Shown here in pieces: positions 1 through 23,021 of a DNA stretch of 25,135 nucleotides. The DNA is from Catajapyx aquilonaris (lineage: Eukaryota). Each line of letters opens with the position of its first letter. Position 1 is the stretch's first letter. The stretch lies in NCBI GenBank assembly GCA_000934665.2, contig KZ538082.1:124001-149135 (forward strand), given 5' to 3'. The notes under the pieces were generated by a model, which saw only the letters and a program-made list of their open reading frames with translations, did not search any database and was not told the origin of the DNA. The translations under genes and the position numbers were made by a program.

Positions 1-180
1 TGTCTTTGGGGGAAACGAGGCAACACTGCCAGGTTTGGGAGTGTATGTGGGGAGGTGAGGTGAATGAGAATGAGGCCCAGAGTGAAGAACAAAGAGGGGG
101 GAGAAAGAATAAACCTAGAGGACGCCGTTTTGCCAAGCATCGCCTTTTTTGGCTCCGGGGGTCATTGCTGTTATAGCGAT

Positions 181-247
181 TATTTGCAAGATTCCGACAT
201 TAGTATAGTGTCGGAATCTTGCAAATACCTATAGTATACTATAGGTA
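181..247. repeat. Two overlapping perfect inverted repeats
   Basis: TATTTGCAAGATTCCGACA (181-199) and its reverse complement (209-227) flank a 9-nt loop. They overlap a loopless 22-bp palindrome TACCTATAGTATACTATAGGTA (226-247). Confidence 0.9.
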
Positions 248-2873
248 TGTGGAAAGTGATTAGCAGCCAGCTTTTGTTTGTTTGAGTGGCTGGGAACGCA
301 AATGTGCAATGGTTTTTCAGAACTCGCCCCCATGATCTCTCTGGGGACATATACCCGCAATTTAATCAACATACCGGCGTGCCATAAACCCGGTTATTTA
401 CCTCCCCCTCTCCCTCTTGCACCCCACCCATCTCTCCCCCTATGCTCTAGTAGAGCAACTTTTTTCCCTCCGGTTCGAATATTTTTTTGCGCTCTTGCCC
501 TTGTCTTCCAGCCATTGATAATGGCAGGTTTCCGTCCTGAAGAAAATCGCGCAGCACACTTGCGTGGATCCCATGTCATTGGGAGCAAAGTTGATGATGA
601 GCACAAATGGAGGTAAAAATTGGGGCATTTGACTAGGGTGGGCTGGAAACGCCTGCTATTGGCCGCCATTTTGTCATCACTGGAGACAGAAGTGGAGTCC
701 ACAACGGCCCACAAGAATATGGGATACGCCCATGTTGTGCGCCCATTGTATCATAGTTGTAGTCATTTTCTGTTGCAAAACAAAAGCGAACGTATAGGCT
801 CGTAAATCATAAGGGTAGCCAAGCATGTAGTCCCATGGTAGAGAAATATATATATATTTTTTACTGTAACCAGCTCAATAAATCAAATTAATCACGATTC
901 TTCCCAGCAAAACATGAGCCACTCAGATGGTGATGGATGCGCACCCTTTTTCACTCCTTCCTGTAGCTGATATCTAACAATGATTTGGCGGTCGTTGGGA
1001 AGGTCGATGTGACTTCAACTAAATACCTGGTGCAGTATACACAAAGCAAAAGGGACTAGTTTTTTTTTTCTTCTTCTTCCTTTCCTTTGGTTCGAAGGAT
1101 AGGAGTGACCGGTGACCAGTTCAGCTACCAGGCTCCAAAGGAGATTAATCTCTCCTTGGTCAGTTGCCACCTTGCAAAATTACCCACCTGTTGGCGGATA
1201 CCTCCCACCATTCGCCAGCACCGCCGGCACATTTGTCTAGCCCAATCCCCCTGCCTTCGATTGTTGTGTTTGGCCACTTGGCCCAAAGTTTGAATTAATG
1301 GCGTGACTCTTGCTGTTCTTTTTTTTTTTTTGCGTAAACTCATTCCCATTAGTTAGCCTTCATCCGGGATCTTTGAAAACGAAGAACCGAACTAATGAGA
1401 TATATGAGTGTGTTGTGTTGCAGCTATTATTAGGGTAATGCCGTGAATAGAAAGGCAACTGGCGGAAACCAGGCGACCTTTTGCGGGGTCGGGGTAGTTC
1501 GCATGCTAAACCGACTTCCGACATTTCATATTCGAAAGAGGTGGGGTGGGTGTAACACCAATGTGGCAACACCTGCGTGCAGCCTGACACCTGACGAGCT
1601 CGAGGGGAACAACAAGGAAATTGGGGAGGTTAAACACCTCGGTTGGGCGCCGCCATTGGTGGGCAGGAAAGCGTGCAGGGTCAGCAGGGGCATGGATTGT
1701 AAATACCCCTGGATCTCATATCCGGCGCCAAAGGGACCCTAGTGCGCGACTTCCTCTGAACTTGCGCGACTTTTTCATATATGTAATGCTTCAAAAGGTG
1801 GCGGTAACAGCTGGCCAGTTCCAAAGTCCGAGAGCCACTGCCCTTGTTCTAATTTGCGTATTTATGAATGAAGTCACCGTGGGTCTGGAGGAGTATCGGA
1901 TTGCGGCGGTAGTGTGACCTGGAGATGTCAAGCCTCACTTTTTATTAGCCATTGGCGAGACGACAGGGGTTTATTATGTCATTGGGGACAATGGGCGCAG
2001 TTTGGCTGATTACGAAGATGGTTGTTGTTGTTTTTTTTGCGAAAGTTCTAGTGAAGGACAAGCTGGCATTTAATGAAGCGTTGTGAGATGGCGAAATGAG
2101 GAGACGGCGACAGGTGATAGCGCGAGTTATGGCCATCTTTATTAATGAGAGGCAGTGAAAAACCTTAATTAGCAGGAGATTGCAGGGCTTGGTGATATGC
2201 GCGATCCGTGTTTGGCAAGAGTTTTTTTGAAGTTCGTGATCAGCGGTTGACCCCGGGTACGCCATGACTCCTACATTTACGGGTCTCATAAATAGGCATT
2301 TTGTGCGGCTCGCTTTGGCTGGGTCTGACAAGGCCAGTGGTTTGAAGTGTATGGAAAGGACACGGGTCGTCTTTGCCCCGGGCCCTTACCTTGAATAATG
2401 GCAAGTGGAACGAATTATTCTACTCTCTGTATCGCCCTCGCTCTTTCTCTCGCCTTCACCTGTTGGGTGCCTAGGATTTTTATTTTATTTTATTTTTTTA
2501 AGGAGGGGGAAATAGGCAAGCGTTGCTAAAATGCGAAGTGTCTGGCGTGGGACGGCGTTATAGGTTCAAGTTATGTGTCCAAGTTTTCCCCGTCCACATA
2601 TGGTTGTGCATTGCCTTACGCAATTCTTTGCGAGGTGTGGTGTCGCAAAATCATAAATAAATCTGGCGTGCTGTGCAGTAGCGTGATAGTGCTTTGTCTG
2701 AAACTTTCTTACCCTTGGCATTTATGTCGTTGCGTTATGAATAATCGTGGTTAAATTTATGAAGTGGGATGCCAAATGTAGCGATATTTGATTGGAGTAG
2801 GACATAGGTGAAGGAAAACACCTTGGCCAAATGTGTTGATGTTTTAAAATGTTTTTTCCCCCTTCCTTTACAG

Positions 2874-2917
2874 GTTGTGGGCAGGCCAGTCTTGATCGCA
2901 ATCTCATCAACGTAAAG
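2874..2917 (+). other. Candidate 44-nt non-coding upstream exon, possibly Hr39 5'UTR
   Basis: A long polypyrimidine acceptor TTTTTTCCCCCTTCCTTTACAG| (AG 2872-2873) is followed by donor AAG|GTAATG at 2918. The only support is these splice signals. Confidence 0.3.
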
Positions 2918-3226
2918 GTAATGTACTCGTTTTTCTGTTTGTTTATGTCGCATTATACATTCTGCGGCACAGGTCATGAGAGACCTTTTCCTGGATATGC
3001 TATCAGGGATCGTGCAGGGAATTAGTTTCTGAGAAACGCAGTCGAGTGGTCCAATCACACCAGTGTGTAATTATTAGCTTGCGCAACCCCCGGGCCCACC
3101 CATCGAGAGTAAAAGTTCAGGGATAATTGTAGCTTTAGACTCTTCCAAGTGAGAGCGCGCATTGTGTCAGGGAAGAAGTACGGCACCGATAAAGAGGAAG
3201 GAACAAGACGGCATATGGTGTTGAGA

Positions 3227-3245
3227 GGGGGGGGGGGGGGGGGNG
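3227..3245. repeat. Poly-G tract containing an ambiguous base (N at 3244)
   Basis: G17-N-G. The true length is uncertain and the N is a likely assembly ambiguity. Confidence 0.85.
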
Positions 3246-4956
3246 AGTTACGATGGTTACAAGTTTGCATGCTCGGCTTTTCCCTCCCAATAAAAAAAAC
3301 GAGGGCCAAGAGACCGTTGGTACAAAAGCATGTAATTCCCAGAATTATCCGCAGCCATTCCTGAGTCATCGGCTAGGGGGGTATCGAATGTGTGAACGTG
3401 GTTGCCAAATTGGTCAACATCGTCACCCATGATGTGTGTCGGGGGTTTTTATTTTCCAGGAAGTTGGTTCTTCTCTAAGGGGGCCTTCCGGCTAGTATGT
3501 GTCTGTGGAAACATTTCGCGACGTGTGGTTTTTCAGTCGTTTTCGTGGAAGACCTAATGCAACCCCGGGAAAACTAGTTTTAACGCAGGGGTCAATAGTC
3601 AGAAGGAAGAACCGGAGTTGGGATGCAACAGGAGCAGACTCGCAGTGCTTTGTTGTGAGTGGGGACAATATCTTGACTTTCTGACATGGACATGCAACTA
3701 GTCACGCCCATCCTAATCACCCCTTTTTCTTCTCTTCCCATTTTCTTTATCACATATGCGTATCTCACGCACAGGGGGGGGACCAACCAACCAACCAGCA
3801 TTTTTTTGAGTCATCCTACTGTGTTATGTCGCCAGTCAGGAAACGACCTTTGAAGTGTTTGAACCTTAAAACTCCCTCCTCATTAATGTGCGTATGAAAG
3901 GCAATAAATCTTATGGCTCGGGCTTGAAAATGGCAGCCTCGCCTTTTACCAAGGGCCCCAAGGGCCTCTTTTGGATGACTATTCAACAGGTGAGCTGAGG
4001 CCAAACAGCGAGGATGGATGACGTTTTTCGTGCACCCCCAGGGCAGACCCAAGGGATTAATTTCACACGCCTAAAACCTTGCTACACTTTCCCCTCAACT
4101 CGCAAAAAATATATAGGTGGAGAACATTTAGATTGAGACGTCCATTGCATGTCTTTTTGCCTGGTGCAGCATCCATTTTCTGTTAGATGGACCAACACGT
4201 CTTATCTGACTCTGGCACCCTTTCAGCATTGTTTACCGGCTGATTGATGGTGATGGAGGATCGCTGTACTGGGACCCCCAATCACTAAATAAAGTCTCGC
4301 ACTATAGAAGCCTTCAAGGGTTGGTTAGAATTCCACAAGGAGCTAGTAGGTGACATTTAAATTTGTGGGCGAGCTGGTCGCCAAAAATTCCAGAGTTGAG
4401 GCCAAAATGGTGCCCCCGCTTTTTTTTATATATTGTTTTTTGACCCAGGGGGAATAATGGGAGAGTATCGAGCCTCTTGCACTATACCATCATCCACGTG
4501 ACGTGCTCGACCTTCACGGGGCCTTGGCCAGAGGGGTCATCCGAGGCTTTGATGATGATGGTCTTGGAGAGGGAGGGGGAGAGAATCGAGCAGCGGAACA
4601 TCCATTCTGGAGCTCCGGTTCCCGTTCCCACGAGCCAGTCGCCCCCGTATATTTTTTGAATATATTCGGCCACTTTTTTTTTTTTTTTTTGCATGGGCCA
4701 TGCACTTGGAACACTGCGGATGACCTTGCCCTCAGACAGGGGCTTCCGAACTGAACACCCCCATCCCCCCAAAAAATGCTATTTTGGATGGTCTCTATTT
4801 TGGCGGCCTCTACTCCCCCTTTTTCCTGTCGGGTCATCGCGCCCGGGAATCTGGGAGCAGGGAATGCTTCCCGAGGGATGCTGCGGGGGTGGCCCGGGAG
4901 ATATGCACCATGTGTTTGGCAGAGCATCGGCGTGGGCTGGTGTTCGGTGAGATGTG

Positions 4957-4987
4957 ACACACACACACATGCACACACACACACACA
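4957..4987. repeat. (CA)n microsatellite, interrupted
   Basis: ACACACACACACATGCACACACACACACACA. Confidence 0.9.
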
Positions 4988-7900
4988 ACAGCCTTGCCGC
5001 AACCTTCTCAAGGTGACGAGCGAAGGGGGAGGAGGGGGGAACGAGGGGGCGGAGGGAGTGGGGGAGAGGGGAGGTGTTGAGCTAGAGCAGCATGCAAAAT
5101 TGGCCTCCCCAAGAGAGGCCCTCTGGAGGTTGAGGGAAGAAGTCGTGTTTTAACCAGTGTCCAGTGTTGGGATTTGTACAGTGGATTTTAGGGGTGAGTT
5201 TTTAAAAATACAATTGGCGGATGCACGTTTTTTGGAGGTTTTTGTAGAAAAATGTGGTGTTTCGCAGTCGGCGGTCGTTTTTTTTTCTGTGATATCGATG
5301 CGGTTGGGGTGAAAGAACCTCCTTTGCGAAGGACGGGGGTTCGGCGGAATTTGCGTTGCGTAGCTATGTGGAGCCCGCGCTATCAAGATTGACCTTAGCC
5401 TGGATTCCGGATGGGGGGGGGGAAATGTGTTTTTGGCAAGAGTTACATCATTTTTTTGGCGCACCTGAATATTTGCATGTGCTATCCTGTATCGACCCTT
5501 CCGCATCAATCGTATGCGGCGCACATGTCATCGCACCGTGTGTTGCGCAGAACCTTGTTTTGGACAAGCGCAAAAATAATAATAATAACAATAGAGCAAT
5601 AGGCGTGATTTTTACGAGCAGCTGCCAACAGTGCAGGTCCAAAGTGCAATCGGTTTTTACCTGGCAAAAGAGTGTGTGGACTGGAGCAAAAAGGCAAGCA
5701 AGGACCGGCCTGCTGACGTCGGCCTTTTGGGCGAAGGTCAGCGTCCTGCATTCCACACTCCCTAGAGAGAGACCTGCAACTGTGTCGCTTGCTCAGGACC
5801 CCAAGACATATTCGCAGTTGCCACATCGGGGGGTCGTGGTTTTTGATGGCAAAACCGTGTTTCTGGCCGTCATCATCAAGGGGTTGGTTATTATGAGGAA
5901 TGGAGTCAAAGGAAGGGGAGAGAATGTGTAATAACGCACCGAGCCCGTTGCACCATTAAGTTTCCGTTTTACGACAGAAGATTTGTTCTCGGGGGCTCTC
6001 TGGAGATTCGGGACACACGTTGGTACTCTACGGCACTTTAGGAGTTCTCGGAAGATGAAAGGGGACCAAAAAAAAGGGGAAAAAAGGTGGGGCTCGTCAC
6101 TGTTATAGGGTCCCCGACACCGATCTCTAGAGGTGACGATCCGCTAGGCATGTGAGAGGCTTATCTGCCATTTCCACATAGTTCGTTTCTCCCACATGCT
6201 GACGCATCTTGTACAAGAGGGCAGGGGGATAAAATTGTCGGACGTGTTTTAAACGTTTCAAAAAAACTTCAGACCTACTGGGAAAATTGTATACGAAATG
6301 AGGCTCCAGGCATAGTAACTACGCGAAATGGTGCCTGTGGGCTGTTGCACAAAATGAGCAATTAGGCATAGAATTAATGTTGTGGATCAGAAAGTTTCTG
6401 CGGTAATTAGCACAACATGGTAAAGATTGACTGAGCATGGTTGCATATAATGACTGTCCAGATCAAAGGTTTCACATTAGGTCCCACCCATCATGGCGAC
6501 ATCAAATGTTTGCATATATTTTGTGCCAAGTGCTAGGAAGTGCGATGCTTTATGGCCCCCCAAATTGAAATACAAGTTTGTTCATTCATGACAAGTCCGT
6601 TTTGTCATGCTTCTCGTGCGGATTCTTGAGATGAGTCTGACTGCCGAGACCGGCGCAGAAGAGGGCAGTGACCACTAACCAGATTTTTTTTTCTTTTTTT
6701 TCTTACGCTGTAAACACCCATAGGGAGGGTCGATGCTTCTGTCGGATTGCAGCTCGAGAAATTATTTTGGGGGGGAGAATAACTAGGGTCTTTAACCCAG
6801 GCCTTATTGTAGCATAAATAGCGCGGGTCCCGCATGTGTATATATACAGTTGGAGAAATTTTGCGACATATGTCTCCCCATGTAATTCCTGACTAGCATA
6901 ATTGAAGCGGGTTAATCCTCTTTGCGAACCAACCCGATCTGGTTGGATAATGAGGATAATGACAGGTAGCGTCCAGGACGTCGCTCTCGGATTGTCGGCC
7001 AGGTACGCATAAGTATGGGTTCAGAGGCGGGATTCTGGGATTCTATATAGGATTGGCACTGAGCTGTCGACGGTTTAATTTGTGCGAGGGCATTGCGGGG
7101 TGTGCGGTTTAAGCAAAAACGCGGGCCTCGGAATGTGTCAAATCATTCGCAGGCTGATTTATACCGTTTGAAAACGGAATTGAAGGTCGTATATAATAAG
7201 TTGCCGTTTGTTATGTGGCTGCGAGACGAGATTCAATTACGGCCTGGGTACTCTGGATAAGGGAAGTACACGAGCTTCCGTTGGGCTGCAAAGGACGTGG
7301 GAAAAAAATAATATGAAGGGGGGTGGGTGGCGATAAGTGAAGCGAACCCCATTGACCCTCTCTGTTTCCATGCTGATCCCACGCTGGTCAGGGAAAGTCC
7401 TCGTGCAAGGTCACGGCAGCATATGTACTGACAGAGCCTGCTTGTGTAATTACCTTTGTTTACATTACACTGATTTACGTACGAGCTTCGAGGTGGTTTA
7501 TGCGCCGCAAATAGGTTGCCCCGTATGCATATCGACGTCCTTTTAAAAATTGCTGTGCTAACCGACAGTGGACAGCTGATGGTTCGTTGCGTTGTCCCGT
7601 AATATTTTATGCATGTGGCCAGCAGGCCAATTTGCAATGCGGTTACCAGTACGTACACGTATATAGTATTGTGCGCGAGCCCCAACCCGTGTAAGGTCCT
7701 CGAAATAGGTGTTGTAGAGCGTGACTTAGCTGCCACTTAGAGCGGATTATTTCTGAGGGCGGGGATTGGCAATTAATGGGTCCAATTGGGTCGTGTCTGC
7801 CCCGCTCACTTTCTCTACGTGTTGATATCTCAATTGCGAAGTCTAAGTACGGTACAAGGTAGTTTTTTTTTTTTTTTTTTTGCGTTGACCTCTAAGGTGT

Positions 7901-10633
7901 GGCCGCGTTTTTCTCGTAATCGTACGGAGCAAAACGTATCCTGGCCGAAATGAGGCCCCGGATTTCCTGCCCTGTGTCGATTCTTAGGAGCTGACCCACT
8001 TGCGACGGAGGAGAAGATGCCAACCACAGTCGAAGGTAGAAGGTTGTTTTTAGTATAGCGTATATCCCCCGCTGTGTTCTCTCTAACGCGGCCTACTTTG
8101 ATGGGGCGGAAAACCCCGAGTAATAATATTCGTCCTGGAAAAGGACTCTGAATCCGGCTTGTGCCAGCGGTCCGGACTAAAAATGGCGGCGCCCACGTCC
8201 GATAGGCCTACTTGGGAAACATCTGATGGAAATTGCCCTCCCTGGTTGATATTTGCATGTTACACTGGTAGGAACCGGTATACGCATGCATTATCGCCTT
8301 TATCGAGCGCGCGGGGAAGTTTTAATGCGGTAAAAGTGATGCTGCCTCTCGAATTAAATACCCCTCCGACTCCCGGATGTTGGTGGTGTATAGTTCAGCG
8401 AACCTTCATCGTGTCGTCTCCTCCTTTTCTTCTTCCTCTAGCGCCGCCTTGAGAATTAATTACCTGCCTCGACGCTTGCTTCCAGGTGGGAGGTCCAGCT
8501 TTGTGATACCTTGATAGATTAGGTGCTGGTCTAGTGCGCTTTTTGGAGAAGGTGGGGGGGAGTAGCGTCGCTAATTCCATGTTTTTTTTAAAGAGTGTTC
8601 CGGCGGTGCAAGTGAAAACTGTCCGTGGTTAGTGTGAACGATGCGAAGGTCGTCGGAGTGGAAATGTTTGGGAGAAAAACGATCGGAAACGTGTGAAGCA
8701 GGCCATCGTTGCGTTTAATGAACCAGGAATCAGTGATTTGGTTCGTTTTTATCCTTGCGGACTGGGGGAAAGTGAAATTGGCGGGTAATTAGATTCATTT
8801 GGTGTTTCGGTTGTAGTTAAAACAAATGTAATCAACACGTGTATATTCCAACGGCGTGAAGGGCACAGGCAGGCAGATAGCCCTCTGTATATAAAAGGTA
8901 CTGGCCCGGATCTCACTCCCCGTCTGCACTTATCTTATCTTATTTGCAGGCCGCATTTTCTGTTTACCTGGCGAACGTTATAGGAAGGGGGAAAACAATT
9001 TTTCTCGGTGAGGAACTGGAACTAGTTTCGACCTCGGATTGGTGATACCAAAAGTTCTCGTTGCGTCATGTGAACTGTATTTTTAGGGTTAGTCAATCGA
9101 AGGTTGATGAAGTGTATGAAGGTCTTTTGAAATGTGAGACGCGTGCGGAATGTTCGTGGGCGTCGACACCACTACGTCATTATACATTCGCTTCAATCAA
9201 AATTGGCACCTTGATTAATGCTGTTCATAACCGAGATGCGTTTTGGGCTTGCTGATAAATTTTTATTATCGGGACTAGAATGCAGTTGCATACGTTTTAA
9301 TCGCTTTTCGGATCATGCACATGATGATCCTGCCGGGTGTTTATTTTGAAAAAATCTAGACGATTAAAAATTGGCCTTTGCCACAAATTGATAAAAGATG
9401 AAACTATGTGTCACACTGTAGCACTAATGACGCAACGATTTTTGATCTGTAACAATAATGTTGTGACGACTCGTTACGTGTGAATGTCTAGGTTTAGACG
9501 AATTGCGTCACGGGCCGCTGGGAGTTGCCAACATTCGGGGCAATATGCAATTTGCAAAATCCGTACAGCCGGGGCTCCCCACCAATTACGTGGGCTGGAA
9601 TTCGTTGGGCGATGCCCAGGTCGTCTCATTCGTCACGGCGACCTCGGCGACCCCTGCCGGACGGTCCGGTCAACTGTATATTCTTACGTAACCTTCAATT
9701 CCACCCCCAAAGTGAGATCGTGAAGAAAAAGGCGATTCCTGGTTGCGTTCCCTTTCGCAAATCCTGTGCAGGCAAGTAGAGAAAATCAAAAGAGCTCCCC
9801 TTTCACATGGCAGAGCTGGAGTGACCTTCAGATGTCGTTGCTCCCGAGCCTTCTAGTCACCTTTACCTGGGCCCGGGAGTCTACCTGTAGTCACCTGTGC
9901 TGAGGAAAAGAAAGCCGGATTTGCAATGCGAGACATTGCGGTTCGCAGTGCACGATTGCGCTGGCATTTCCTTCGACCTTGGCGTTAAGTTAGGTCAAAC
10001 CCTTTTACCCCCGTACATTCCAGGTAGTTGTGTTTATTTCACGGGGTCTGCGTGGCTGGCGGGAAAGGAGGGGGGGAGGAAAAGCCAACCTGAGCAATGG
10101 CCGACGGTCCCAATGAACCTGCTGCCAGAGACCTTGGCCGGATGACGTCACAATGTGGTTCTGGTAGCGCCAACATTTCGGGGCGTGGGCTCACCTTTTT
10201 GCCTTCTCCATATCCCCCAACCCTGCTGGTTGTCGTCGAAAATCATACACCTGTGCCGTGTGTCGATCGGTGGGGGAAATCTTTGGGAGACTAGACGGCG
10301 ACCCATCTGTGAGTCATGGGGTTAGCCAAAATAAAGCGCGGCCAATTTCTGGTCCGGTCGTGTATACCTGGAGGGCGAATAATTTATGTTCTCAAGGTGG
10401 GCTGTTGTTGAAGGCAGGCTGGCTGGGTAGGCAGGGGAGGCAGCCGGCGTCATGGTCAACGGCGGCGGCCATCTTGGGGTATGTTGAGGACCTGGTTGGC
10501 TGGCCGCCTGCTTGTTGGTTGGCTGCAGAGAGGGTCGGGACAACAGGGCCGCCGAACCGAGGATGATGCTGGAGGGGCAAGGACGTTTGGAGGGACACCT
10601 GCCTGATGTGCGGTTGTGCGTACGGTGTGTGCT

Positions 10634-10653
10634 GAAGAAGAAGAAGAAGAAGA
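10634..10653. repeat. (GAA)6 microsatellite
   Basis: GAAGAAGAAGAAGAAGAAGA. Confidence 0.85.
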
Positions 10654-13323
10654 GTTGGCTAAGTGAGTGTGGGTATCCACAAAACCTGTTGTAGAAAGGT
10701 CAGTGGCAGGTGCGTTGAGGACTGTGGTTGTCAACACTGGAGGATGTACCGTGCGTTCAACCGGACCCGGCCAAAATGATTCAAGTGCAGCTGAAGGACA
10801 ATGGGTGCGGGGAACAGCCTTGACCGTCAGGTCCTGCTTGCTGCTGCAGCAGAACAAGAATAACAAGCAGCCAGCAGGCCATATTTTTATTCCACCCACC
10901 AGCAACGAACTGAAAAAGGAAGATCCGTAGCCGTGTAGAGCCAAGGTCGCTCCCGCATGTTGGGACCTAGCACATAAAAAAAATTTGGGTGGAAAAAATA
11001 GAAATGTAAAAGGGCGTGCCTTAGTGGGTGTGCAAACTGTGGAACACATATGGAGACAAACACAAGCGTTTCCGCCAGAATGCAGCGGGATTACATCAAC
11101 TTTCTCACCTTGAGAAGCCAGAGAGGTGTGCCGAATGATTCATTTCGCAGAGCAGGGAAACGTGCGTTTTCGTGAATGACGTCCGTACTGGCCGTACACT
11201 ACTATCCGCCGCCTTGCGACGACAAGGAAATGGAAAGCCCGAAGTAACCTTGGCTGTTTATTGTTCTGCTAGCCATTTCTAATACCCGTCGGCGATTTAT
11301 TACCATTTGGGTCATCCGCAACACATTTCGCAAGAACGGCCCTTTTCACGACTTTCAAGATGAAAGGGAAGCCTTTTTGCAGTGCTGCCCTTTCGCTCAA
11401 ATCGGCATGGAGTGCTAATAGGCCCGTAGGCCGCGCATTTAAATTCTCGGTTCGGACGTCACATACCAGATATCACGTATCAGCTAGCTAATGAATGACC
11501 TTTGGCCAGCCAATATAAAAGCGCAAAAAACTAGGAAAAGCTTGCTTATCGCATGCAGGGACGAACTATTGCACACTGCACGTTTGTCGCCCCCAACTAG
11601 GAATAAACTAGTTTCTATTTATGACCAGAGGGTGTGGTCCATGCTGGAAGCTGTCGGCACAAAAAAAAGCCACACATGTGTAGGCTAATTAGTGCTCGTT
11701 ATGTAAGCCCAGCGTCACGGAAGAGCTTTCGTGCTGGGAAATTATCAATCATATGTCGCCTCTCCCTGACATGAACTGTTGGTCGGCCTTCTTTTCTTTC
11801 TCATGCACTCCCCCAGAACCGTGAGGATAATCCACAATAGTTGGTAAACTATCCGTGACGCGGTAGACTGCTGGACGGAGGTGGGGGTCACCCACAAGAG
11901 ACACGTGTGTTGTTTCCGACCGTTTTCCGCCCGGCCCTCCCACCTATGGCGCGTAGGACTGGTTGCTGACGAAAAGGAGGAAAAAGGATAGGCAAAGGCC
12001 GTCTGAAGGCCGTCTCGGTCGCCTCCGATGACGGAGCTTCCCACCCCCGGCACACACACACAGCAGGACTTCGCCGATTGCCCAACTTGACACGTAAGGT
12101 CAAGCGCGGGAGACATACCCACGTGCGAATCTTATCGCGTGAGGCACCTTGGAGGCAGATATCGGCGGGACGGTTGTTTGAACTGGTTTGTCCAAATTGA
12201 AGCTTGGCAACACGAAAAATATTATATTTGCCCTTTGCTATTTTCAGAGAGTCGAACTTTGTTCCGTGGCTGGGGAAGGGACGTCATCGTGATTTCCCCC
12301 CCGCAGCCTTCCCCCTCTCTTGCCATAAGATGGAGTTGTCCCTTCCAATGAAGGGACATTGTGTGCAAATGTCCCCGCGGTGTTATTGGGGCCCATAAAA
12401 GAGATTGGAGTGGAGAGGACCCATAAAAAGTGAAGGGGGGGGGGGGTGAATTTGAGTTCGTATATCTTCATTGTTTGCCGGTGATTTAACATCGGATCGC
12501 GTTATCGCAGCATTGTGATATGGCGTCCGTCCGGATTTGTTTCCATTGTGGATTCGTCCGTATGAATACACATCTGTTGCCAGTGACTTGGACAATCCGC
12601 CCCCTTTGGTTGTAATCAGTAAGGTCATTACGTTAAGGGGGCTCGAGTTATATTCGTGAACAGTGGCTGTGGTTTGCGATGGGGAACCGGTGCTCCAGAA
12701 GGTTGCGGACGGAAGGAGCGAGCATAGAAGAATGTAGTGGTGGCTGGGCCGAAGGGGGAGAAAAAAATGAGATAAAAAGTGGGCTTCAACATTGCTGGAC
12801 TTGTGTTACCGGTTATTGCCAAAGCTGGTTGTGCATAAGGGCAAGAGGGTTGAACACTCCCAGGGGAAAAGACTCGGCATGTTTCGCGCAATTTCCGCAC
12901 ATATTCCACCCACCTCTCGGAAATAAAATATTCATTGGCCAGGCGTAGGATGATTTTAGTTTATGAATCAGTCGGTTTTTTTTTGTGTGTGTGAGATTCT
13001 ATTCTTAAGGGGAAATGTTGGGGGGTACAACCTTGTCAATGGCTTATCTTTTATCGTGGCGACCCTGGTTTTTTGGTTCTTATATCTGTCTTATGGTCGT
13101 GTAAATCAGGCGTTTACAGGAAGGTCGCTGAATTTTTTCCACAAAGATATCATGCGTGACATTGAATGTGAATTGGTTCTTTTGATAGTGTTTTTTTTGT
13201 TGTGTTTGTTTTTAGCTTGGATGTCAAAGTCTGCAGATTAGCAATCGAAATGAGAATGTCAAAGTTACGTGAAACAAAGAAACTTGTTACATATTTTTAA
13301 TGAATTTGTCCTTTTTTTTCCAG

Positions 13324-13552
13324 GTGCCTTGAAACACTTCTTGAAACTGACTGGGTGTGTGTAATTTGTGCTCAAGTGGATGGAAGGTGACCTGTGACAT
13401 TAGTGCATTGAGGAAGTTTATGGCCTGTCTCACCTGGGACATAGTTGTTGGCCCAGCAATGAACCAGTGCGGGTGTGTCAGTGCGGACAATGATGCCCTG
13501 AGGCCCTCCAAAGACTGGACCAGATGACACTCTGTGGTTTTGGGCAAGAGAC
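13324..13552 (+). other. Hr39: Probable Hr39 5'UTR portion of the first coding exon, containing uORFs
   Basis: A strong acceptor TCCTTTTTTTTCCAG| (AG 13322-13323) lies upstream of the ATG, which implies further non-coding 5' exon(s). Base composition switches from CpG-rich to CpG-poor here. Confidence 0.6.
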
Positions 13553-14057
13553 ATGAATGAGACCATGGACAGCAAAGCACTGGTGAGCGGGTGGGGTGGG
13601 GGAGGAGGGGGTGGGGGAGGGGGAGGTGCAGGAGGAGGAGGCACAGGGGCCACTTCTTCAGCATCTCACTACCACCTGCACCACCACCACCACCATCACC
13701 ATCACCACCACAACAGCAGTAACGCACAACATTCCTTGGGATCCTCTGGAGCGCCTACTTCCACCTCATCTTCATCCTCCTCTTCGTCTTCTTCGTCTCC
13801 TTTACTCCTGGCCAAGATAGCCAATGTGCCAATTCCATCGCCTGTTCCGCTGTCCCCGCAGCTGGGGCAGAGGATAGGTGGGGTAATCCTTCTTCATCAC
13901 CACCACAACGGTGCCAAGGTGGAGGCCACAGAAATGGACTCAACTGTCAGCCTCCAGCAACAGCAACAACTACAACAACAGCAACAACAATCTCCTGAGC
14001 ATGCCTCCAGTGTAGGGGGCAAAGACAATAGACCACCACATCTCTCTTCTGTTGTGG
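13553..14057 (+). CDS. Hr39: Hr39 (FTZ-F1beta/NR5B1) coding exon 1; low-complexity N-terminal A/B region with poly-G, -H, -S and -Q runs
   Basis: ATG at 13553 follows an in-frame TGA at 13499-13501. A second in-frame ATG in strong context (ACCATGG) at 13565 may be the real start. The exon ends at donor GTG G|GTGAGT (GT at 14058), phase 1, which joins in frame to the exon at 15329. Confidence 0.8.
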
Positions 14058-15328
14058 GTGAGTTGCAAGAGTGCTGAAGCGCTTTTGTTCTGTGTTTTAC
14101 CGCTTTTTTAAAAAACTTGCGTAGTGCTCATTTTTGTAACAAAGAGATTGACTTTCTCTGTGTAATTACCCGTACTCAAATAAAAGGTCAGTTTGTGTGT
14201 GATGAAGTAAATAATGACAACTTGCTGAAGAAGAGGAATTATTGTGCTCTTCAGGTTCAGGAATTTCTTTTTTTGGCTGCTCTGAATTACACATGAATCC
14301 ATTATTTATGTTAATTATACGAGTGTATGCATATATGAGCCAAATGTGTCTAAGAAGAAGAAGAAGGTCCACTGTGATAAGCCCTCGACCCTCTCAAATG
14401 TCTGACTTAATTACTTTAATCACTGTACAGTACACTGAATTTTTAAATGTGGCCTAATATGTTTTTATAGGGGAGTTCATAAAATTGTATAATAGTGCTT
14501 TCAAGAACTGTCAGAAGTCAGGAGCACGATGTGATGAAATTTTGACCAAGACTTTTAAAATGTGGAACAATTTTCTTCGCTCATTATTTAAATCATCCAT
14601 TTGATCATATGCAATCATTTCTAAATTCATCTATAGTCTTTGGACAATCTCAATCTGTTTTGAAAAAATTAGGGGGGAAACTTGCCACATCAATATGACT
14701 CATACAGTGTGAGGAAAGTAAGGGGACTATAAGACTAGGACTGGTGGTTGCTCACAGCCCTAAAATAAACCTCAGTTTTGTCCTTGACCCTTGATAATTA
14801 AGCAGTAGTAATGGATCGTTGACATACAGAAAACTCCAGATAATTTGTAGACCACATTTTTTGTGCCAAAATTCATTTGTATGACATGTCTACACCAGAG
14901 TAGCTCACTGATACCAGTGTCAAGGAGTTTTAAAATCTCTGCATGAACCATGCTGCACCATGCTGGTAATTTCTGATTCTGCTTTATTCAGCTATAAAAT
15001 ATTGTGATTTCTTGAGACAATAACATTACAAGCTTTGTTGCAATCTTCATTTTTTGGTGGCACTTGCACATGAGTTAATGTTTAAGTTGTTTTAGTTGAA
15101 TGTTTAACAACTTCCTGATCTGGTCCTATGAATATGAATATTGCCCAACTGTGAGACTGCTGTAATGCAATGGAAGGGATGATCATTTGTCAAGAAATTT
15201 CAGATATCATGGAGGTTAAATATATAAGATGATATCAGCAGTAGATAAAATGCTTATTTTCTGGCTTAGTAAACTGTAGTTTTTTGTGTGTTTATTATGC
15301 ATGATAATAATTACCAATTTGTTTATAG

Positions 15329-15636
15329 TGCACACCAACAGTCAAGAAGAACCTCTTCAGCTGAAGAGCTCTGCATCTACCCCAAGGCTTCCCATGGAAG
15401 CAGAAATTGGTGGTGCTGCGGAAGACGAGGACAACTCTGGCTCTGATGCAGAGGTTAGCAAGATTGACTTCACGGCTACTCACGTGAATCTTCGTAACAA
15501 GAAGAAGCACGGAGATGGAGCCGAGGAGCAAGAGAGGCCTATGTCTTGGGAGGGGGAGCTCTCCGATGGAGAACTCAGCCAGATGGATGACACTGTGGCA
15601 GCCCCACCCAACAACAGCATTCTGCCTTGCAAACAG
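15329..15636 (+). CDS. Hr39: Hr39 coding exon 2 (acidic A/B region, ...ERPMSWEGELSD...)
   Basis: Acceptor TTTATAG| (AG 15327-15328) is phase 1 (G+TG = Val). The frame is open from VHTNSQEEP to LPCKQ. Donor CAG|GTAAGT at 15637 is phase 0 and matches the next exon. Confidence 0.88.
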
Positions 15637-16256
15637 GTAAGTTTGTAAGACTAGGGAAGTGCTGCATTTTTTTTAGGTTTCTTTCCATGATCACATACAT
15701 TTTTATCATTGGAAAAGGTTTCTAAATAATACACCCTTGAAAAAAGTTCTTATTACTGGTTTTCAGTAGTGTACAAAGGTTATAAACACCATTCGTTTGC
15801 ATAGTAGCCTTACAGAATTATTGTGCAGCAATACCCATCAGTGACAAAGTCTGAGTAGAGCAAATACTTGTCCATTGCAGATCTTTTGTTTGCTCTTGAT
15901 GCAGGATTTTAAATGGTAGGCCTATGTCTAGCACATATGATAATGGAAAGTCATATAAACCAGTTCAGCACAGCGAATTTTTGTGGCGTTGAGCAACTGC
16001 TGTAGGCAGGTGTCAGTAGTCAAATCTTGAATTTCATGTATTGTTGACTTCAAAATTAGCTCTCTTTTGTTCAGGTATTTCAAGCTGAATTTGTAATTAT
16101 ACCAGTGTTGCGCACTCCTGAATAAGCACTATTGACAGGAGTTAAATACTGTTACTCTCTCAGCAGAACTAATAATAATCATCCCTGTTTAAGAGTGAAA
16201 AAAAGGGTGTTGATGTTACTAAATTTCTGTATGTTAATATTTTGTTTCCTCATTAG

Positions 16257-17844
16257 GAACCAGAAGAGACATCCATGGAGGGCATCCAGACCACAAGTCC
16301 TGGCAGCCCTCACCCGAAACCGGAGGAACCTCCACCAGATTGGGATAAAGCACCAGAGATGCCCCCAATGTACCACACACAGCAGCAGCCTCCTCCACCC
16401 CTGCCTCCTCCTCCTCCAGACTTCCCTTCAGAACTGCCACTACCCCTCTCAGACCGGATCTTGGGGACATACAGCAACACCCCCAGTCAGAGCCCACTTC
16501 AGACTAGACACAAGCAGCCCCCACAGGCCCCTACACCAAGTCCTGATTCAGCCATACATTCAGCTTACTACTCCCCAACCCAGTCCCCAGTGCAATCCCG
16601 ACATCTCTCAGGATTCAGCAGTCCATTCTCACATCGGACCACTCCCAGCTTGTCTAGGAACAACTCAGATGCTTCACAATACGGGGGGTCACAGCACTCG
16701 TACTCATCGTCAACAACGAGTCCAATATCACCTACACATTTTTCACCAACGCATTCCCCAGTGCAGGCCAGGCATCTAAATGGTGCTGGATTTATGTACG
16801 GGTCACGCCCTGATCTCCCATCCTCGCCACTAGCACCGCGACACCTGCCTGGATACCCGCACATGTTTCCAGATGAAACTCCTGACAATGACGAAGACAA
16901 ATCACAATCACTCCCACCTGATCTTATGCAACACTCAGCATTGGCAGCTCAAGCCGGTATATCTCGCCAGCAGCTGATCAACAGCCCTTGCCCCATATGT
17001 GGTGACAAGATATCTGGGTTCCACTATGGTATCTTCTCATGTGAAAGTTGCAAGGGCTTTTTCAAGCGAACTGTGCAAAATCGGAAGAACTATGTGTGCC
17101 TGCGAGGCTCAACTTGTCCAGTAGCCATTGCCACACGTAAGAAGTGTCCAGCTTGCCGCTTTGAGAAGTGCCTCAAGATGGGCATGAAGTTAGAGGCAAT
17201 CAGGGAGGATCGTACAAGGGGAGGAAGAAGCACATACCAGTGCTCATACACACTTCCAGCCAGTCTGGTCCAATCTAGTGAAACTAGGGGTGGTCCAGGA
17301 ACATCTTCATTTGCACCACCAGAAGTCCCAGTTAAGGTGGAGACACCTGAGACATCAGCAGGACTAAGCACTGTTCCACATTTGCTTCAGGAAATTATGG
17401 ATGTGGAGCATCTTTGGCACTACAATGATCAGGAAATTCATCCGAAAGCCTCATCATCAGCATCAGAAGCATCGAAGATGGCTGCTGACTCAAACTCAGA
17501 CTACCTGACTTCACTTTGCAATATTGCAGACCATCGTCTGTACAAGATAGTGAAGTGGTGCAAGTCACTACCTCTGTTCAAGAACATTCAGATTGATGAC
17601 CAGACCTCGCTACTAATCAATGCATGGTGTGAGCTGCTTCTCTTTTCGTGCTGCTTTCGGTCCATGCCTTGTCCTGGGGAGATCCGAGTCAGCCTAGGGA
17701 AGTCCCTGTCCCTGGAACAAGCTAGGCAGTTGGGTCTCGGACCATGCATTGAGAGAATGCTCAACTTCACTGAGCATCTGCGCAGGCTCAAAGTAGACAA
17801 ATATGAGTATGTTGCCATGAAGGTTATCGTCTTGCTTGCATCAG
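16257..17844 (+). CDS. Hr39: Hr39 coding exon 3: Pro/Ser-rich A/B region, C4 zinc-finger DBD with FTZ-F1 box, hinge and most of the LBD
   Basis: Acceptor TTTCCTCATTAG| (AG 16255-16256), phase 0. The [34 protein letters not shown]...[14 protein letters not shown] (16989-17186) has the NR5 P-box ESCKG. It is followed by [21 protein letters not shown] (NR5B-type FTZ-F1 box) and the [26 protein letters not shown]. Donor TCA G|GTGAGT at 17845, phase 1. Confidence 0.97.
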
Positions 17845-18038
17845 GTGAGTTGCGCTTATTAAATTACTCATGTAATGTTTCTGTACAGTTGTGATAACTC
17901 TGTGGAGTATAATTTAAATCATTTTCCAGTCAATTAAGGCAATCTGCAGTGTTTTCCTGATGCTAATTATTCAGCTTCTCAGATAGGTTAAACAGAAGGA
18001 CTGAGGAACAATACTAAACATGGACCTTTATTTATTAG

Positions 18039-18283
18039 ATGCAAGTGGATTGAAGGAACCAGAAAAGGTACGCAGCTCCCAAGAGAAAGTGCTGCAGGCC
18101 CTGCAGCAGTATACCTTAGCTCACTATCCTGAGCTCCCGTCCAAGTTTGGGGAGTTGCTTCTAAGGATACCTGACCTCCAGAGGACATGCCAGGTGGGAA
18201 AGGAGATGCTCTCCATCAAGAATAAGGATGGAGAGGTGTCCAGTTTCAACCTCCTCATGGAGCTGCTCAGAGGGGACCATTGA
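18039..18283 (+). CDS. Hr39: Hr39 coding exon 4: end of LBD with AF-2 helix and stop codon
   Basis: Acceptor TTTATTTATTAG| (AG 18037-18038), phase 1 (G+AT = Asp). It encodes [17 protein letters not shown]...[24 protein letters not shown]...[12 protein letters not shown]. This C-terminus is typical of arthropod HR39. The spliced CDS totals 2646 nt (881 aa plus stop). Confidence 0.96.
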
Positions 18284-19167
18284 CATGTGCCACAAAGTCA
18301 GTTCACTTGATGTTAGGTGGGTGTCTCATAATAAGGGTTGTTACTTCAGAAACCAGTGCATGTGGGAGGTGAAGTGAATATACACCTAGCCTGAATGGGT
18401 GACACAAATAGCACAATGTGTCTGAGCAAAACATCATTGGACACTTATTATGAGACACCTCAATGCATCTCACTTATCATTTATGTTACATTGTTACCAA
18501 TAACTATTTCCTTTATTGCAGTTTGTTTCTCTGTGCCTTCCTTCATGCAATCAGGAAAATGCCAAATGCCAGTATGCTGCAGAAGACATGGCAGGACATT
18601 CTTTTTTATCATACTCGCTAGCCGCCAACCTTTTTAGTTGCTGGATGGGAAGCGGTGCAAGTGTAGTTTTTACATGTTTTTTTTTGTATACATGGAACAA
18701 GTGCGATATTTCTGGCTCCTCAGTGAGTTTACAGTGATGGTGACTGCTTTTTTACAATCCTTTTTGCAGCTTAGTTCTTTTTATAATTGCTGTAAGTGAT
18801 ACGTGAAGGTTCTTTTTTTTTTTTACGAAGAGGCTATTTCATATATGCTGTAATACAAATGCCTTTGTAAATGGTTTTGTAACAAACCAGGCTTTCCCCC
18901 CACTCCCCTCCATTTTTTAAAATAATTGCCAAGTGAAACCAATGACAGTTTATATTTCTACTGAAAATATTCTAGGTGTTGTAGTTGTGGTGATGTTTTG
19001 TGCCTTCACTAGCACTGTGTTGTGAGAGGATATAATTGAGCTGAGAAGTAAGTTTAGTGACACTTTGCAAAAACTTGACAATCCATACCTTCTTTGTGTG
19101 CTAAAATGTTTACCTGTTTTGGTTTAGGGTGTGGGAGGAAGGATCACTAGGTGTATATAATAAGTAA

Positions 19168-19223
19168 GGGTGGAATTTTCGTCCCACTGCTAGTTACTGC
19201 TAACTTAGACGAAAATTCCACCC
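19168..19223. repeat. 16-bp perfect inverted repeat (hairpin) downstream of the Hr39 stop
   Basis: GGGTGGAATTTTCGTC (19168-19183) and GACGAAAATTCCACCC (19208-19223) are separated by a 24-nt spacer. Confidence 0.9.
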
Positions 19224-21099
19224 CAAAACTTTAATTTTCTTTAAGAATTTTTTAAATATTACGTTTTTGGTGCTGGAAATGACCTTTTCAAAAGAATCCA
19301 TGCTCCCAATTAGCTCCTCCTTCCTCCCCCCTGCATGTTAGGTTAACACACCACAAGTGCAATGACAGAGTTAACTGTAGTTTAATGTAATATGATATAT
19401 TTTTTCGAATAAGCATGGGTTGCAAGTTGCTGCAACGTGTCACCACCACAGTTTGTACTTCATGTTGCCAGCTATTTATTACTAACTGCTCTATGCGCTG
19501 ATCCCAAACCCAAATTGAGTTTTGGATGTGAAACAAGGAGATTTTTTTTTAATGTTGATATTTTTATTTGCAATGGAATAGGAGTCATGAAGATGTAGTG
19601 CAATGGAAAGGAGAAGTATTCGATACATTCCCACCGAGGGATGTTTCCCTCGTCGTTATGTTACACATGAGAATCCCAGTGGTAATGAATAAGATGAGTT
19701 GAGAAATTATAGCTTTCGACCAGTATTTAAAAATGTGTGTGACAGCACTTATTTATTCTAAGGTTGTTTTATACCTCAGAATTATGTGCAGAAAATTATT
19801 TAGGGGGGGACTTAATGATTGGAGGAGGGAAGTAAGAATGAAGAGTGATAACATGTCTTATAAAGACACATGCCAGCAAACTCTCTGACATTCATTTGGG
19901 TGCTGATATTTTCACTGAGGCAATCTAATTTTCAATCAGTTCCTCGACAGGTACTGTCAGGCGCAAGACATGTTGGTCATTGCAGAAGTGTGGATTGGCA
20001 GGGGTTGGGGATAATTATTATTAGTATGTAAAAAAAGTAAGAATAATAATTCCGGTGACTTTCCCCTACCCCTGAGTGACAGCAAGGATCAAAAATTGTT
20101 TTATTCAGTTGTAGTTCTGGTACTTGATTGAACCTAGACTCTCAAAAACTGTTCTCATGTGAATCATGATATGTGAGTCAGTGTTAGGTTAAAAAGGGGG
20201 GAAAAAAAGTTCTCCCCACCTCTCCCCATTTCTGGTTTTACCATGCCATCCCCATTTTTTATATTGAATGAATGAATGAATGTGATGCTTTGTACTCTTG
20301 TTTTTTCATGGAGAACTTGCATCTATTGGACAAAAAAAGAGATGCTTTTTTATATCACTGGCGAGTTTATTGACAATCTGGTGTCTTGCTTTTTCAGGTG
20401 GTGGTAGGTTTATTACTTCCTTTCAGGCATGGATGTTTCTGCAACAAGTAAGGCATTAATATAATGTATAGGCTATGTAGTTTTGTTGTCAGTTCTCTTT
20501 CATATGTGATGCCTGCCTCAGCCAAGAAGCTAGTTCCGAAGTAATTGTTGTGCTCAAGAAACCAAGCAATATTCCAAGTGAAGTAATGAATGTGGGTCTC
20601 TGGTCCTTTGTTTAACTTGCCTGGTTTTCAACATTCCACCTTGTAATCATGAACAAGAATACTTCATTATCTTAACGCACGAAGGGTATCTCTTGAATAA
20701 TATTGGCATACTTTTTTATTGTCTTTGTGCAAAAACTGGGTATAATATAATATGACAACCTTCACTACATGTGTGCAATTATGAGCAAAATAATGGAGAC
20801 GGACTTGTTAGAAGATCCAGTGAGTTCAGTGTAAAAATGGGACTGTCTCTGGCCCAATATAAAAAGATGGTGTTGGCTGCCCCAGTCTTCCAGACGTAGC
20901 CTACTCTATTATTCAAACCAGAAACTTTCTGGACAATTTCCAAGTGTTCCCTGGATATTTTTATGTCAGGCCTATTAGAACAGGTTTTTAAGAACCAAGA
21001 ATTTATTGATATATTACTTGCTATCATTCTGTGTATGGGTTAATTTGCATAGCAGCTTTGACATTTTCCTTAGTTTTTCCTACACGACAAGGAGCCAGT

Positions 21100-21850
21100 T
21101 TTTTGCGACCCACAATGTTCAAGATGTAGCGCGTTCATGTATGTCCTGTCGTGGTGCTACATTGAGGCCACACTTTTGGGCCACACCATCTCATCTGGAA
21201 GGCACGACGAAGTGCTTGATACGATACCCATTTGAAAGTCGCGGACACGAGGTGAATACGATACCCAATGTTCCCACCCCCAGAGCACCCCTCCTTTGTG
21301 TCGCTAAAAAGGAGCGTGCATGGCCGCACTATTAAACGTTATATGACATCGGGATATTCTTACTCTCGACGTGTGACTAGATCCCTAGTTTGCTGTGTTT
21401 TATTTTCCCCACCCTCTTTACCATCCCCTCTTTCTGGCGGGCGCTCTCCTTCCCTCCCTTTCTGTTGGCAACACTGAGGCGTCCATATTGGCTGAGCGAG
21501 GCATCCATCGCTCCTCGTCGAACGTCGATCTTCGTCCGTCCGACGGTCTCTCTGTCGGTGGAGCCTCGCCTCGTTCCCCAGCAATTTGATCAGTCCCTGT
21601 CGGTGTTCATCTATCTCACGGAGGGTGTGCCGGTGAGACCCCGCCAGATCCACACGGACAACAGGCCAGCCACCATCCCATACTCGTGGAAATGGCAGAG
21701 GAAGACGAGTGCGTGATATTGTCCGACGACGAGGAGGAGGAGGCGGAGGAGGGCCACCAGGAGGGGCAACAAGGATTCAAGAGGGTGCCGGTCATTGCGG
21801 TAATACTTGCTTGCACGCACGTGTTGGGGGCCGATCAGCACCCCCCTATC
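21100..21850 (+). promoter_or_regulatory. CpG-rich island, probable Daxx promoter and 5'UTR
   Basis: At least 13 CpG in 21481-21600, against CpG-poor flanks. An inverted CCAAT (ATTGG) lies at 21487-21491 and an Inr-like TCAGTC at 21590-21595, about 100 nt before the ATG. The boundaries are approximate. Confidence 0.55.
21692..21799 (+). CDS. Daxx: Daxx-like coding exon 1 with N-terminal SUMO-interacting motif
   Basis: MAEEDECVILSDDEEEE resembles the DAXX N-terminal SIM (hydrophobic core plus acidic run) and lies at the end of a CpG-rich island. The best donor is GCG|GTAATA at 21800 (phase 0). A weaker in-phase alternative is AGG|GTGCCG at 21785. Confidence 0.65.
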
Positions 21851-22695
21851 CTAAAGACAACTTGCAGATTAGTCCTGCCTCCTGTCTGGTGTGATCTAAC
21901 ATGTGGCCCCGTTCCTTGCCCACTGATCCAGGAAATGGAGACAATGCGTTTCTTGCTTAGCACTCAAAATGTGTGGCCTCACATTTCTTGACCTTGTGGA
22001 TCTAGGAAAACTGATCTGGAAGAGTGGCTAGTTTTTAAGTGGTTTGGCTGTGTACTGTCTACCTGGCTGAATTAATTCAGCATTTCACAGCCAGGGAAAT
22101 ATTTCAAATAAAATTAAATGAATGCTCCTTACAGTTGCAGCACAATGTTTGACCACACCCCGAATCAATATTATAGCCATTACACTTGCCCTAATTGATT
22201 TTCTGAAAATAAGCACCAGCAGAGCCTTGGCCCAGTCAGTGAGACAACCGGGAGAGTTATTTACAGGGTGTGTTTGGAAGCAGGACAAGTGATTTTAATT
22301 GTTGGGTGATGAGCCCAGGCCACGTGCAATGTCAGGGGGAGTGCAGTCACATGTTTCACTGACCCAGAGAACTGACATGTGTTAAGTGCAGCCTATTAGA
22401 AACCCTGGTTGGCATGATGATAGGCACAACTGCACAAGACACACTCCACACTTCCTAGCAACGAGGAGCATAATGGGAGCTAGTAGATGAGAATGGAGAC
22501 TATCAAATGAAGTGACGTTTATAGCCATGCCTCAAAAAACCATGATACGTCACGGCTAGCCATAAGAAACTTTTCAGTGATGATCGTTGATCTGCGTCCT
22601 GTTCGGATTACCTTATAGACGTGTGCATCAAACTTGTACTTCCTCTTACCAACAACAATGTAGCAAGTTTTAAAGGTGTTAACTTTTTTTTTCAG

Positions 22696-22830
22696 AATGT
22701 GATGTCCCTGAAGCCTAAAACTGACCCTGGAGGCAATAAACCCACAATTAACCTCTGTGATGATGAAATAGAAATAATCAAAGAGGTGGATCCACTGGAT
22801 GCGTCAGAATCCCGGACTCTAATAGACAAG
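22696..22830 (+). CDS. Daxx: Daxx-like coding exon 2
   Basis: Acceptor TTTTTTTTTCAG| (AG 22694-22695), phase 0. It encodes NVMSLKP...INLCDDEIEIIKEVD...RTLIDK. Donor AAG|GTGCGA at 22831 is phase 0. RTLIDK joined to VLLVCK gives the first helix of the Daxx helical bundle. Confidence 0.78.
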
Positions 22831-23021
22831 GTGCGACCAACAAAGAAATATATTGTAATTTGGGTTACTATGTTGACTGTGAATATAAGTCTTGGCTATA
22901 ACAAACTCTCGCTTATAGCAGACTCATTTCCGCAGTCCCTTGAATTATGTTATCCTGAGTCTACTGTATATGCATGCAAGTAGGAATATATCATAACTAA
23001 GTGAACTCTCTGATATTGCAG

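Follow-up and report, generated by a model that had tools for sequence, protein, structure and literature searches.

In Catajapyx aquilonaris, the DNA lying 5′ of the coding exons of Hr39, a nuclear-receptor gene also named FTZ-F1 beta, contains the heptamer AAGGTCR (R = A or G) 18 times on its two strands, about five times as often as expected by chance. The stretch analysed, hereafter called the window, is 25,135 nucleotides long (positions 124,001 to 149,135 of the forward strand of contig KZ538082.1, assembly GCA_000934665.2), and positions are counted from its first letter. The excess is confined to positions 1-13300, a domain that has kept its CpG dinucleotides, and it ends where the CpG-depleted gene body begins. 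We tentatively propose, giving the idea somewhat less than an even chance, that these 18 copies are solitary nuclear-receptor half-sites that feed receptors of the ecdysone cascade into the control of Hr39; the proposal does not choose among several candidate receptors.

Extent and sharpness of the AAGGTCR excess

The window as a whole contains 23 matches to AAGGTCR on both strands. In 100 dinucleotide shuffles the count was 6.30 ± 2.51, with a maximum of 14, and none reached 23. Positions and strands are the same as in the original prediction, which had been made from the letters of the window: 18 matches lie within 1000-13127 and five beyond (14184, 19280, 21989, 23787 and 23799). Its estimate of about 3.2 copies in 13.3 kb under uniform base composition was also right, and the enrichment that it described withstands comparison with shuffled DNA. 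When the window was split at 13300 and each part was dinucleotide-shuffled separately 1000 times, the first part had 18 copies against 3.26 ± 1.80 (maximum 10; no shuffle reached 18; Poisson P = 1.2 × 10−8) and the second, 13301-25135, had 5 against 2.85 ± 1.74, a count reached by 162 of the 1000 shuffles. At equal density in both parts, a share of at least 18 of the 23 copies for the first has P = 0.011.

Each variant of the heptamer is enriched alone: under an order-2 Markov model of 1-13300, AAGGTCA is found 9 times against 1.79 expected and AAGGTCG 9 times against 1.47. The two words ending in a pyrimidine, AAGGTCC (one copy) and AAGGTCT (three copies), are not enriched, and 18 of the 22 copies of AAGGTC have a purine as the next base (P = 0.002). 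Among the 1836 non-repetitive hexamers of the region, AAGGTC is the most over-represented one (22 against 6.91, P = 3.7 × 10−6, or 0.0067 after Bonferroni correction), the runner-up having P = 1.5 × 10−4. All 18 one-letter variants of AAGGTC stand at 0.4-1.5 times their expectation in 1-13300, and the base preceding AGGTC is an A in 22 of 38 cases. Within the window, the excess is real and it is that of a sharply delimited word.

Six sequences served as controls, namely 13301-25135 and five related Hr39 gene-body loci (L006, L004, L013, L011 and L001). Their best hexamers had P values ranging from 1.6 × 10−4 to 3.2 × 10−3, none of which passes the Bonferroni correction. The related loci were obtained from a metagenome scan with a protein query; it returned 16 loci, all of them gene-body pieces of Hr39 relatives that stop short of the 5′ region, and they were used as controls only. 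Over 70,674 bases of this related gene-body DNA, which is CpG-poor and in which several loci cover the same exons, AAGGTCR occurs 15 times against a uniform expectation of 17.25.

Position and layout of the 18 sites

The sites were located by pattern search, ten on the + and eight on the − strand. AAGGTCG is preceded by G at 1000-1006 (+) and by A at 1474-1480 (−) and 3844-3850 (−, in TCAAAGGTCG); it is part of TGAAGGTCG at 4508-4514 (−) and 7183-7189 (+) and of CGAAGGTCG at 8646-8652 (+). AAGGTCA is found in GCAAGGTCA at 4721-4727 (−) and 7407-7413 (+), in CGAAGGTCA at 5734-5740 (+) and in TGAAGGTCA at 9822-9828 (−), and after a T at 5390-5396 (−), 12096-12102 (+) and 12621-12627 (+). Two sites are full matches to YCAAGGYCR (Y = C or T), both of the form CCAAGGTCG, at 9974-9982 (−) and 10941-10949 (+). 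Two others are copies of the octamer AAAGGTCA, which resembles the binding element of NR4A receptors, at 10695-10702 (+) and 11496-11503 (−, in CCAAAGGTCA). The most proximal site, AAGGTCG preceded by G, is at 13121-13127 (+), about 430 bp 5′ of the ATG at 13553. The near-matches listed in addition by the original prediction are all present: ACAAGGCCA at 2328 (+), TCAAGGTGA at 5008 (+) and 11105 (−), CCAAGGTCT at 10129 (−) and CCAAGGTTA at 11245 (−).

The sites are solitary. At 17 of the 18, a search within 8 bp found no second half-site of the form RGKTCR (K = G or T), which is the layout expected of monomer-type sites. The site at 1474-1480 is the only one with a nearby half-site, GGGTCG at 1486 (+), in everted orientation and 6 bp apart; no other direct, inverted or everted pair was found among the 18. 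None of the sites is an EcR/USP palindrome. With up to two mismatches, the EcR/USP palindrome RGKTCANTGAMCY occurs 13 times against 11.24 expected, and 39 of 100 shuffles reach 13. The best palindrome of this type in the 5′ region, AGTTCAGCGAACC at 8392-8404, has one mismatch to RGKTCANTGAMCY.

The 18 sites are independent of one another. The 15 bases on each side of them share no similarity, and the sites are covered by none of the 18 direct-repeat families and none of the 22 inverted pairs; the tandem arrays, of which there are six rows in the window, all lie away from them. An origin of the sites in a dispersed repeat or transposon was rejected on account of these unrelated flanks and of the lack of any repeat family, pair or tandem array over the sites.

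The downstream gene and its 5′ domain

The gene on the + strand was outlined from stop-to-stop open reading frames (ORFs) and from spliced RNA-like contigs of run X5, which give the GT..AG joints 15634>16255, 17842>18037 and 18296>18522. The first coding exon, 13553-14077, is taken from the ORF 13502-14077, with an RNA-like contig over 13744-13949; the open frame has its first ATG at 13553, and the 3′ end of the exon is at or before 14077. This exon encodes Gly-, His-, Ser- and Gln-rich tracts; a tandem array of the GGGGTGGGGGAGGAG type and 15 CAC units, at 13585-13711, code for its poly-Gly and poly-His. An internal coding exon at 15366-15634 (ORF 15280-15648) ends at the joint 15634>16255, its 5′ limit being between 15280 and 15366. 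The large exon, 16255-17842, is delimited by the joints 15634>16255 and 17842>18037 and, by translation, encodes a Pro/Ser-rich N-terminal region, the zinc-finger DNA-binding domain and the start of the ligand-binding domain. The last coding exon, 18037-18296, completes the ligand-binding domain, with a stop codon ending at 18283; the joint 18296>18522 then runs into the 3′ untranslated region of Hr39.

Residues 250-545 of the large exon, used as a query, have 1233 relatives at E ≤ 0.001. Among those that bear a name, the best are insect proteins annotated as ‘nuclear hormone receptor FTZ-F1 beta’, which are 73-76% identical to the query across 95% of its length, and all of them carry PF00105 and PF00104. 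The solved structures closest to the zinc-finger region are the DNA-binding domains of NR5A2 and SF-1 (E = 3.5 × 10−38). In the FTZ-F1 box, a 12-residue stretch of the HR39 protein of the window aligns with EAVRADRMRGGR of NR5A2/SF-1 and the RGGR part is kept; the residues that follow differ (STYQCSY vs NKFGPMY). Since the protein has both the zinc-finger and the ligand-binding domain and FTZ-F1 beta as its closest named relative, its sequence assigns the gene as the arthropod Hr39/FTZ-F1 beta (NR5B) orthologue. As this orthologue is on the + strand, the first 13.3 kb of the window lie 5′ of its coding exons. The claim of the original prediction that the enrichment stands upstream of a genuine Hr39 gene is thereby upheld, and the enrichment is restricted to CpG-undepleted DNA.

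This CpG-undepleted 5′ domain (1-13300, no strand assigned), which carries the excess, may continue past the left end of the window. Its GC content is 0.485 and its CpG observed/expected ratio 0.85, against 0.432 and 0.43 in 13301-25135. Taken per kb, the CpG ratio ranges over 0.62-1.13 in the first 13 kb; between 13 and 21 kb, i.e. in the gene body, it falls to 0.19-0.37. Such a composition suggests that 1-13300 is unmethylated in the germ line. Coding or RNA genes within the first 13.3 kb were considered and rejected: no Pfam family was found in the six long upstream ORFs tested (nor in four downstream ORFs) and there was no Rfam match in the window. The spliced RNA-like contigs of run X5 lie over coding exons only and none is in 1-13 kb, where the parts touched by this run are T-rich low-complexity matches. 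A pyrimidine run ending in CAG at 13309-13322 (CCTTTTTTTTTCCAG), some 230 bp 5′ of the first in-frame ATG, resembles a 3′ splice acceptor (TTTTTTTTCCAG, ending at 13322). Because of it, a non-coding exon may precede the first coding exon, and part of the first 13.3 kb may be a 5′ intron.

Two further features of the domain were recorded. The palindrome AACTAGTT has three sites in 1-13300; with both strands counted, this gives 6 copies where shuffles have 0.27, and a single shuffle in 1000 gets as far as 6. AACTAGT is counted 8 times against 0.91. Both are absent from 13301-25135 and may constitute a second over-represented word of the 5′ region, one that we take to resemble part of a knirps-type site. 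The other is an inverted pair of 34 nucleotides, 1644-1677 and 8162-8195, with 74% complementarity and the common core TGGGCGCCGCCAT / ATGGCGGCGCCCA; this core is presumably a Pho/YY1-like GCCAT word, as in Polycomb response elements.

The remainder of the window

Just 3′ of Hr39, the DNA contigs reach a depth of about 6244 in the bin 18677-19343, with 19166-19208 as the end point of many of them (feature 19164-19209); together, this depth and these contig ends indicate a high-copy repeat. Further on, at 21360-23594, the + strand carries a neighbouring DAXX-like gene, residues 112-190 of the frame 23001-23594 matching chains of the solved DAXX histone-binding domain with E = 3.7 × 10−6. The CpG-rich kb 21001-22000 (CpG ratio 0.80) is probably the promoter of this gene. 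Two half-site arrangements lie outside the enriched region: a direct repeat of AAGGTCG and AAGGTCA on the − strand at 23787-23805, with 6 bp between the hexamers, and an everted pair of AGGTCA words 1 bp apart at 23216-23228 (TGACCTCAGGTCA), inside the DAXX-like frame.

Discussion

The excess of AAGGTCR is found at a gene that itself encodes a nuclear receptor, which makes an explanation by nuclear receptors the natural one. On the reading that we tentatively favour, the 13 kb 5′ of the Hr39 coding exons would be the CpG-undepleted regulatory landscape of the gene, and the 18 solitary extended half-sites A-AGGTC-R, in both orientations and spaced at about one per 700 bp, would serve as docking points for monomer-binding receptors. 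In this way, receptors of the ecdysone cascade would set the transcription of Hr39. Candidate readers are FTZ-F1 and HR39 itself, which would mostly act at sub-optimal sites; ERR, HR38, HR4 or USP-type half-site binders are further possible ones. What the sequence shows is the excess, its sharpness, the independence and solitary layout of the sites and the identity and orientation of the gene; receptor binding, the receptors involved and the effect on Hr39 expression are what we infer.

Published work would accommodate such inputs. Nuclear receptors of the moulting cascade regulate one another (PMC3390346, PMC6525475, PMC1414087). In Drosophila, DHR39 is regulated by 20-hydroxyecdysone (PMC1414087), and the Hr39 locus is occupied by EcR in wings as well as in S2 cells (PMC6525475). 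Hr39 is among the short-term targets of this hormone (PMC12801496), and its knock-down alters the timing of an enhancer that has nuclear-receptor motifs (PMC4097164). The antagonism between HR39 and FTZ-F1, on which the original prediction leaned, is in print for Drosophila: genetic data show Hr39 to be repressed by FTZ-F1, HR39 is likely to compete with FTZ-F1 when misexpressed (PMC3390346), and the same site is contested by DHR39 and FTZ-F1 (PMC4070562). This cross-regulation concerns the same target gene and the same kind of input as proposed here; it differs in that no EcR/USP palindrome stands out in the window. A single half-site is bound by most human nuclear receptors, and RXRA binds RGGTCR (PMC10345098). 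For this reason, the final purine of the sites does not single out the NR5 receptors. Within the portions of the literature examined, we found no report of AAGGTCR arrays at Hr39 or of an in vitro flank preference of HR39, and no definition of the cis-elements controlling Drosophila Hr39.

Several results weigh against this proposal. The 5′ extension of no known monomeric receptor is enriched: the base preceding the core is G in seven sites, A in four, C in four and T in three. The full NR5 consensus YCAAGGYCR is present twice in 1-13300 against 1.07 expected, a count reached by 291 of 1000 shuffles. The possibility raised by the original prediction that HR38/NR4A could read some of the sites holds in so far as AAAGGTCA is present at the two positions that it gave, but two out of nine AAGGTCA is chance level, as is the single TNAAGGTCA in 1-13300. 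Nor is there an excess of the variants usually tolerated by receptors (AAGTTC 6 against 5.3, AGGGTC 9 against 7.2, AAGGCC 9 against 8.7). There are at most two sites per 500 bp, where random placement gives a mean maximum of 3.28; the sites are dispersed and form no enhancer-like modules, so that the large homotypic array of the original prediction is not borne out as a cluster of the enhancer type. No co-occurring motif was detected around the sites, whether within 60 bp or within 100 bp (best Bonferroni value 1). An order-3 Markov model, which partly absorbs the motif itself, reduces the excess of AAGGTC to 22 against 12.1 (P = 6.8 × 10−3, rank 15). In the distal half, 1-6650, at least six other hexamers rank above AAGGTC; it ranks first in 6651-13300, with 14 against 3.72. 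Lastly, AAGGTCR could be frequent wherever this genome has unmethylated intergenic DNA.

This last thought leads to the alternative that has to be taken most seriously, although we regard it as rather unlikely: that the excess has no function and reflects a general k-mer bias or ancient, unrecognizable dispersed copies in unmethylated intergenic DNA, or is simply an extreme among very many windows and motifs. It would account for the lack of flank preference, partner motifs and clustering, for the exact coincidence of the excess with the CpG-undepleted block, for the weaker signal in the order-3 model and in the distal half, and for the presence of other unusual words, such as the palindrome AACTAGTT, in the same 13.3 kb. 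The alternation of A and G at the last position would also be expected from decay of AAGGTCG by CpG-to-CpA change. However, the Poisson probability given above applies to a motif that was picked from the family of the gene and not from the data, and even when all hexamers are treated as equal the excess passes the Bonferroni correction, with nothing similar in the six controls. The neighbouring words being at expectation, there is no broad compositional trend, and no repeat family was found. Neither the rest of the window nor the 70.7 kb of related gene bodies, which are CpG-poor and partly redundant, shows an excess.

An improbable alternative is that AAGGTCR is read by a factor other than a receptor, e.g. 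a lineage-specific zinc-finger or architectural protein that would mark or organize the domain with about one site per few nucleosomes. The very sharp 7-base word, devoid of the usual degeneracy of half-sites and of a receptor-type 5′ extension, would suit such a protein. The spacing would do so too: no two sites are closer than 152 bp, a minimum gap equalled or exceeded in only 2.1% of random placements. But the statistic of evenness is weak, since the gaps (mean 713 bp) have a coefficient of variation of 0.79 against 0.95 in the null and 21% of random placements are as even. No factor of this kind turned up in the literature examined. AGGTCA-type words are, moreover, the hallmark of nuclear receptors (PMC10345098). 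To our knowledge, no non-receptor factor recognizing AAGGTCR has been described.

The strict form of the receptor explanation, put forward by the original prediction, holds that the sites are a homotypic array of genuine NR5 elements, bound with high affinity by HR39 and FTZ-F1 for auto- or cross-regulation of Hr39. We give it only a slim chance. AAGGTCR does correspond to the 3′ seven bases of YCAAGGYCR, which is the canonical FTZ-F1 motif (PMC7239656) and is given as the SF-1 site (PMC3861103). This core, including its final purine, is what remains of the proposed NR5 element; the YC extension, present in 2 of 18 sites, is at chance. Three further sites read TGAAGGTCR, and TGAAGGTCA has been used, like TCAAGGTCA, as an Ftz-F1 consensus site in a reporter (PMC3861103), so that with the two full matches 5 of the 18 are plausible NR5 sites. 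The number of sequences with exactly one mismatch to YCAAGGYCR is also raised (33 against 20.5 ± 4.3, reached by none of 200 shuffles), but 10 of these 33 consist of an AAGGTCR core whose 5′ extension has the mismatch, and the remaining 23 do not depart much from expectation, the expected share having been obtained by simple arithmetic. YCAAGG (22 against 18.4) and AAGGCCR (6 against 4.4) are at chance level in 1-13300. If 70% of true sites had a C immediately before the core, four or fewer in 18 would have a probability of 4 × 10−5. All three de novo motifs obtained for FTZ-F1 in fly follicle cells by cleavage under targets and release using nuclease (CUT&RUN), CAAGGTCARV, CAAGGTCR and DBTCAAGGTCA, include this C (PMC7239656). 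The repression of Hr39 by FTZ-F1, their competition for one site and the RGGR conserved in the window protein speak for strict NR5 elements; the divergence of the second half of its FTZ-F1 box and the absence of clustering speak against them.

Coming back to the proposed solitary half-sites, it is useful to compare them with systems already described. The FTZ-F1/NR5 elements of Drosophila ftz, Edg84A and Adh have, like the sites of the window, an AAGGTCR core with a final A or G and are single, monomer-type sites for whose possession members of the family compete (PMC7239656, PMC4070562). They differ by consisting of one YCA-extended site within 500 bp of the start site, the distance given for classic FTZ-F1 targets (PMC7239656), whereas here 16 of 18 sites are without YC and they are spread over 13 kb.

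Other extended half-sites are the NGFI-B response element (NBRE), AAAGGTCA, recognized by NR4A/HR38, and the estrogen-related receptor response element (ERRE), TNAAGGTCA, recognized by ERR. Both have the AAGGTCA core in common with the window sites, two of which are copies of AAAGGTCA. However, half of the window sites end in G, and the extensions are at chance. Homotypic site clusters, including low-affinity ones, occur in enhancers, and the likeness is that the gene of a developmental regulator has one motif near it in many copies, the majority of which are probably sub-optimal for any given factor. Those clusters are packed locally, in contrast to the sites described here, which are less crowded than random placement would make them.

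As a long shot, less probable still than strict NR5 elements, one may imagine that such a dispersed array of low affinity, sub-optimal for NR5 receptors, acts as a concentration meter or as a sink in the competition between FTZ-F1 and HR39. Switching of Hr39 would then be limited to the times of high receptor pulses in the moulting cycle, and the arrangement would be a conserved arthropod design unlike compact enhancers.

If functional, the sites would belong to a known kind of regulation, i.e. cross-regulation of nuclear receptors through half-sites, with a layout that is unusual in its dispersion. Should the word turn out to be common in all unmethylated DNA of the genome, the finding would shrink to a compositional quirk. 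If, on the other hand, the sites are bound, they would provide 18 concrete and mutable elements with which the antagonism of FTZ-F1 and HR39 could be studied outside Drosophila, and they would illustrate how a gene can be regulated by numerous sub-optimal sites that lie dispersed.

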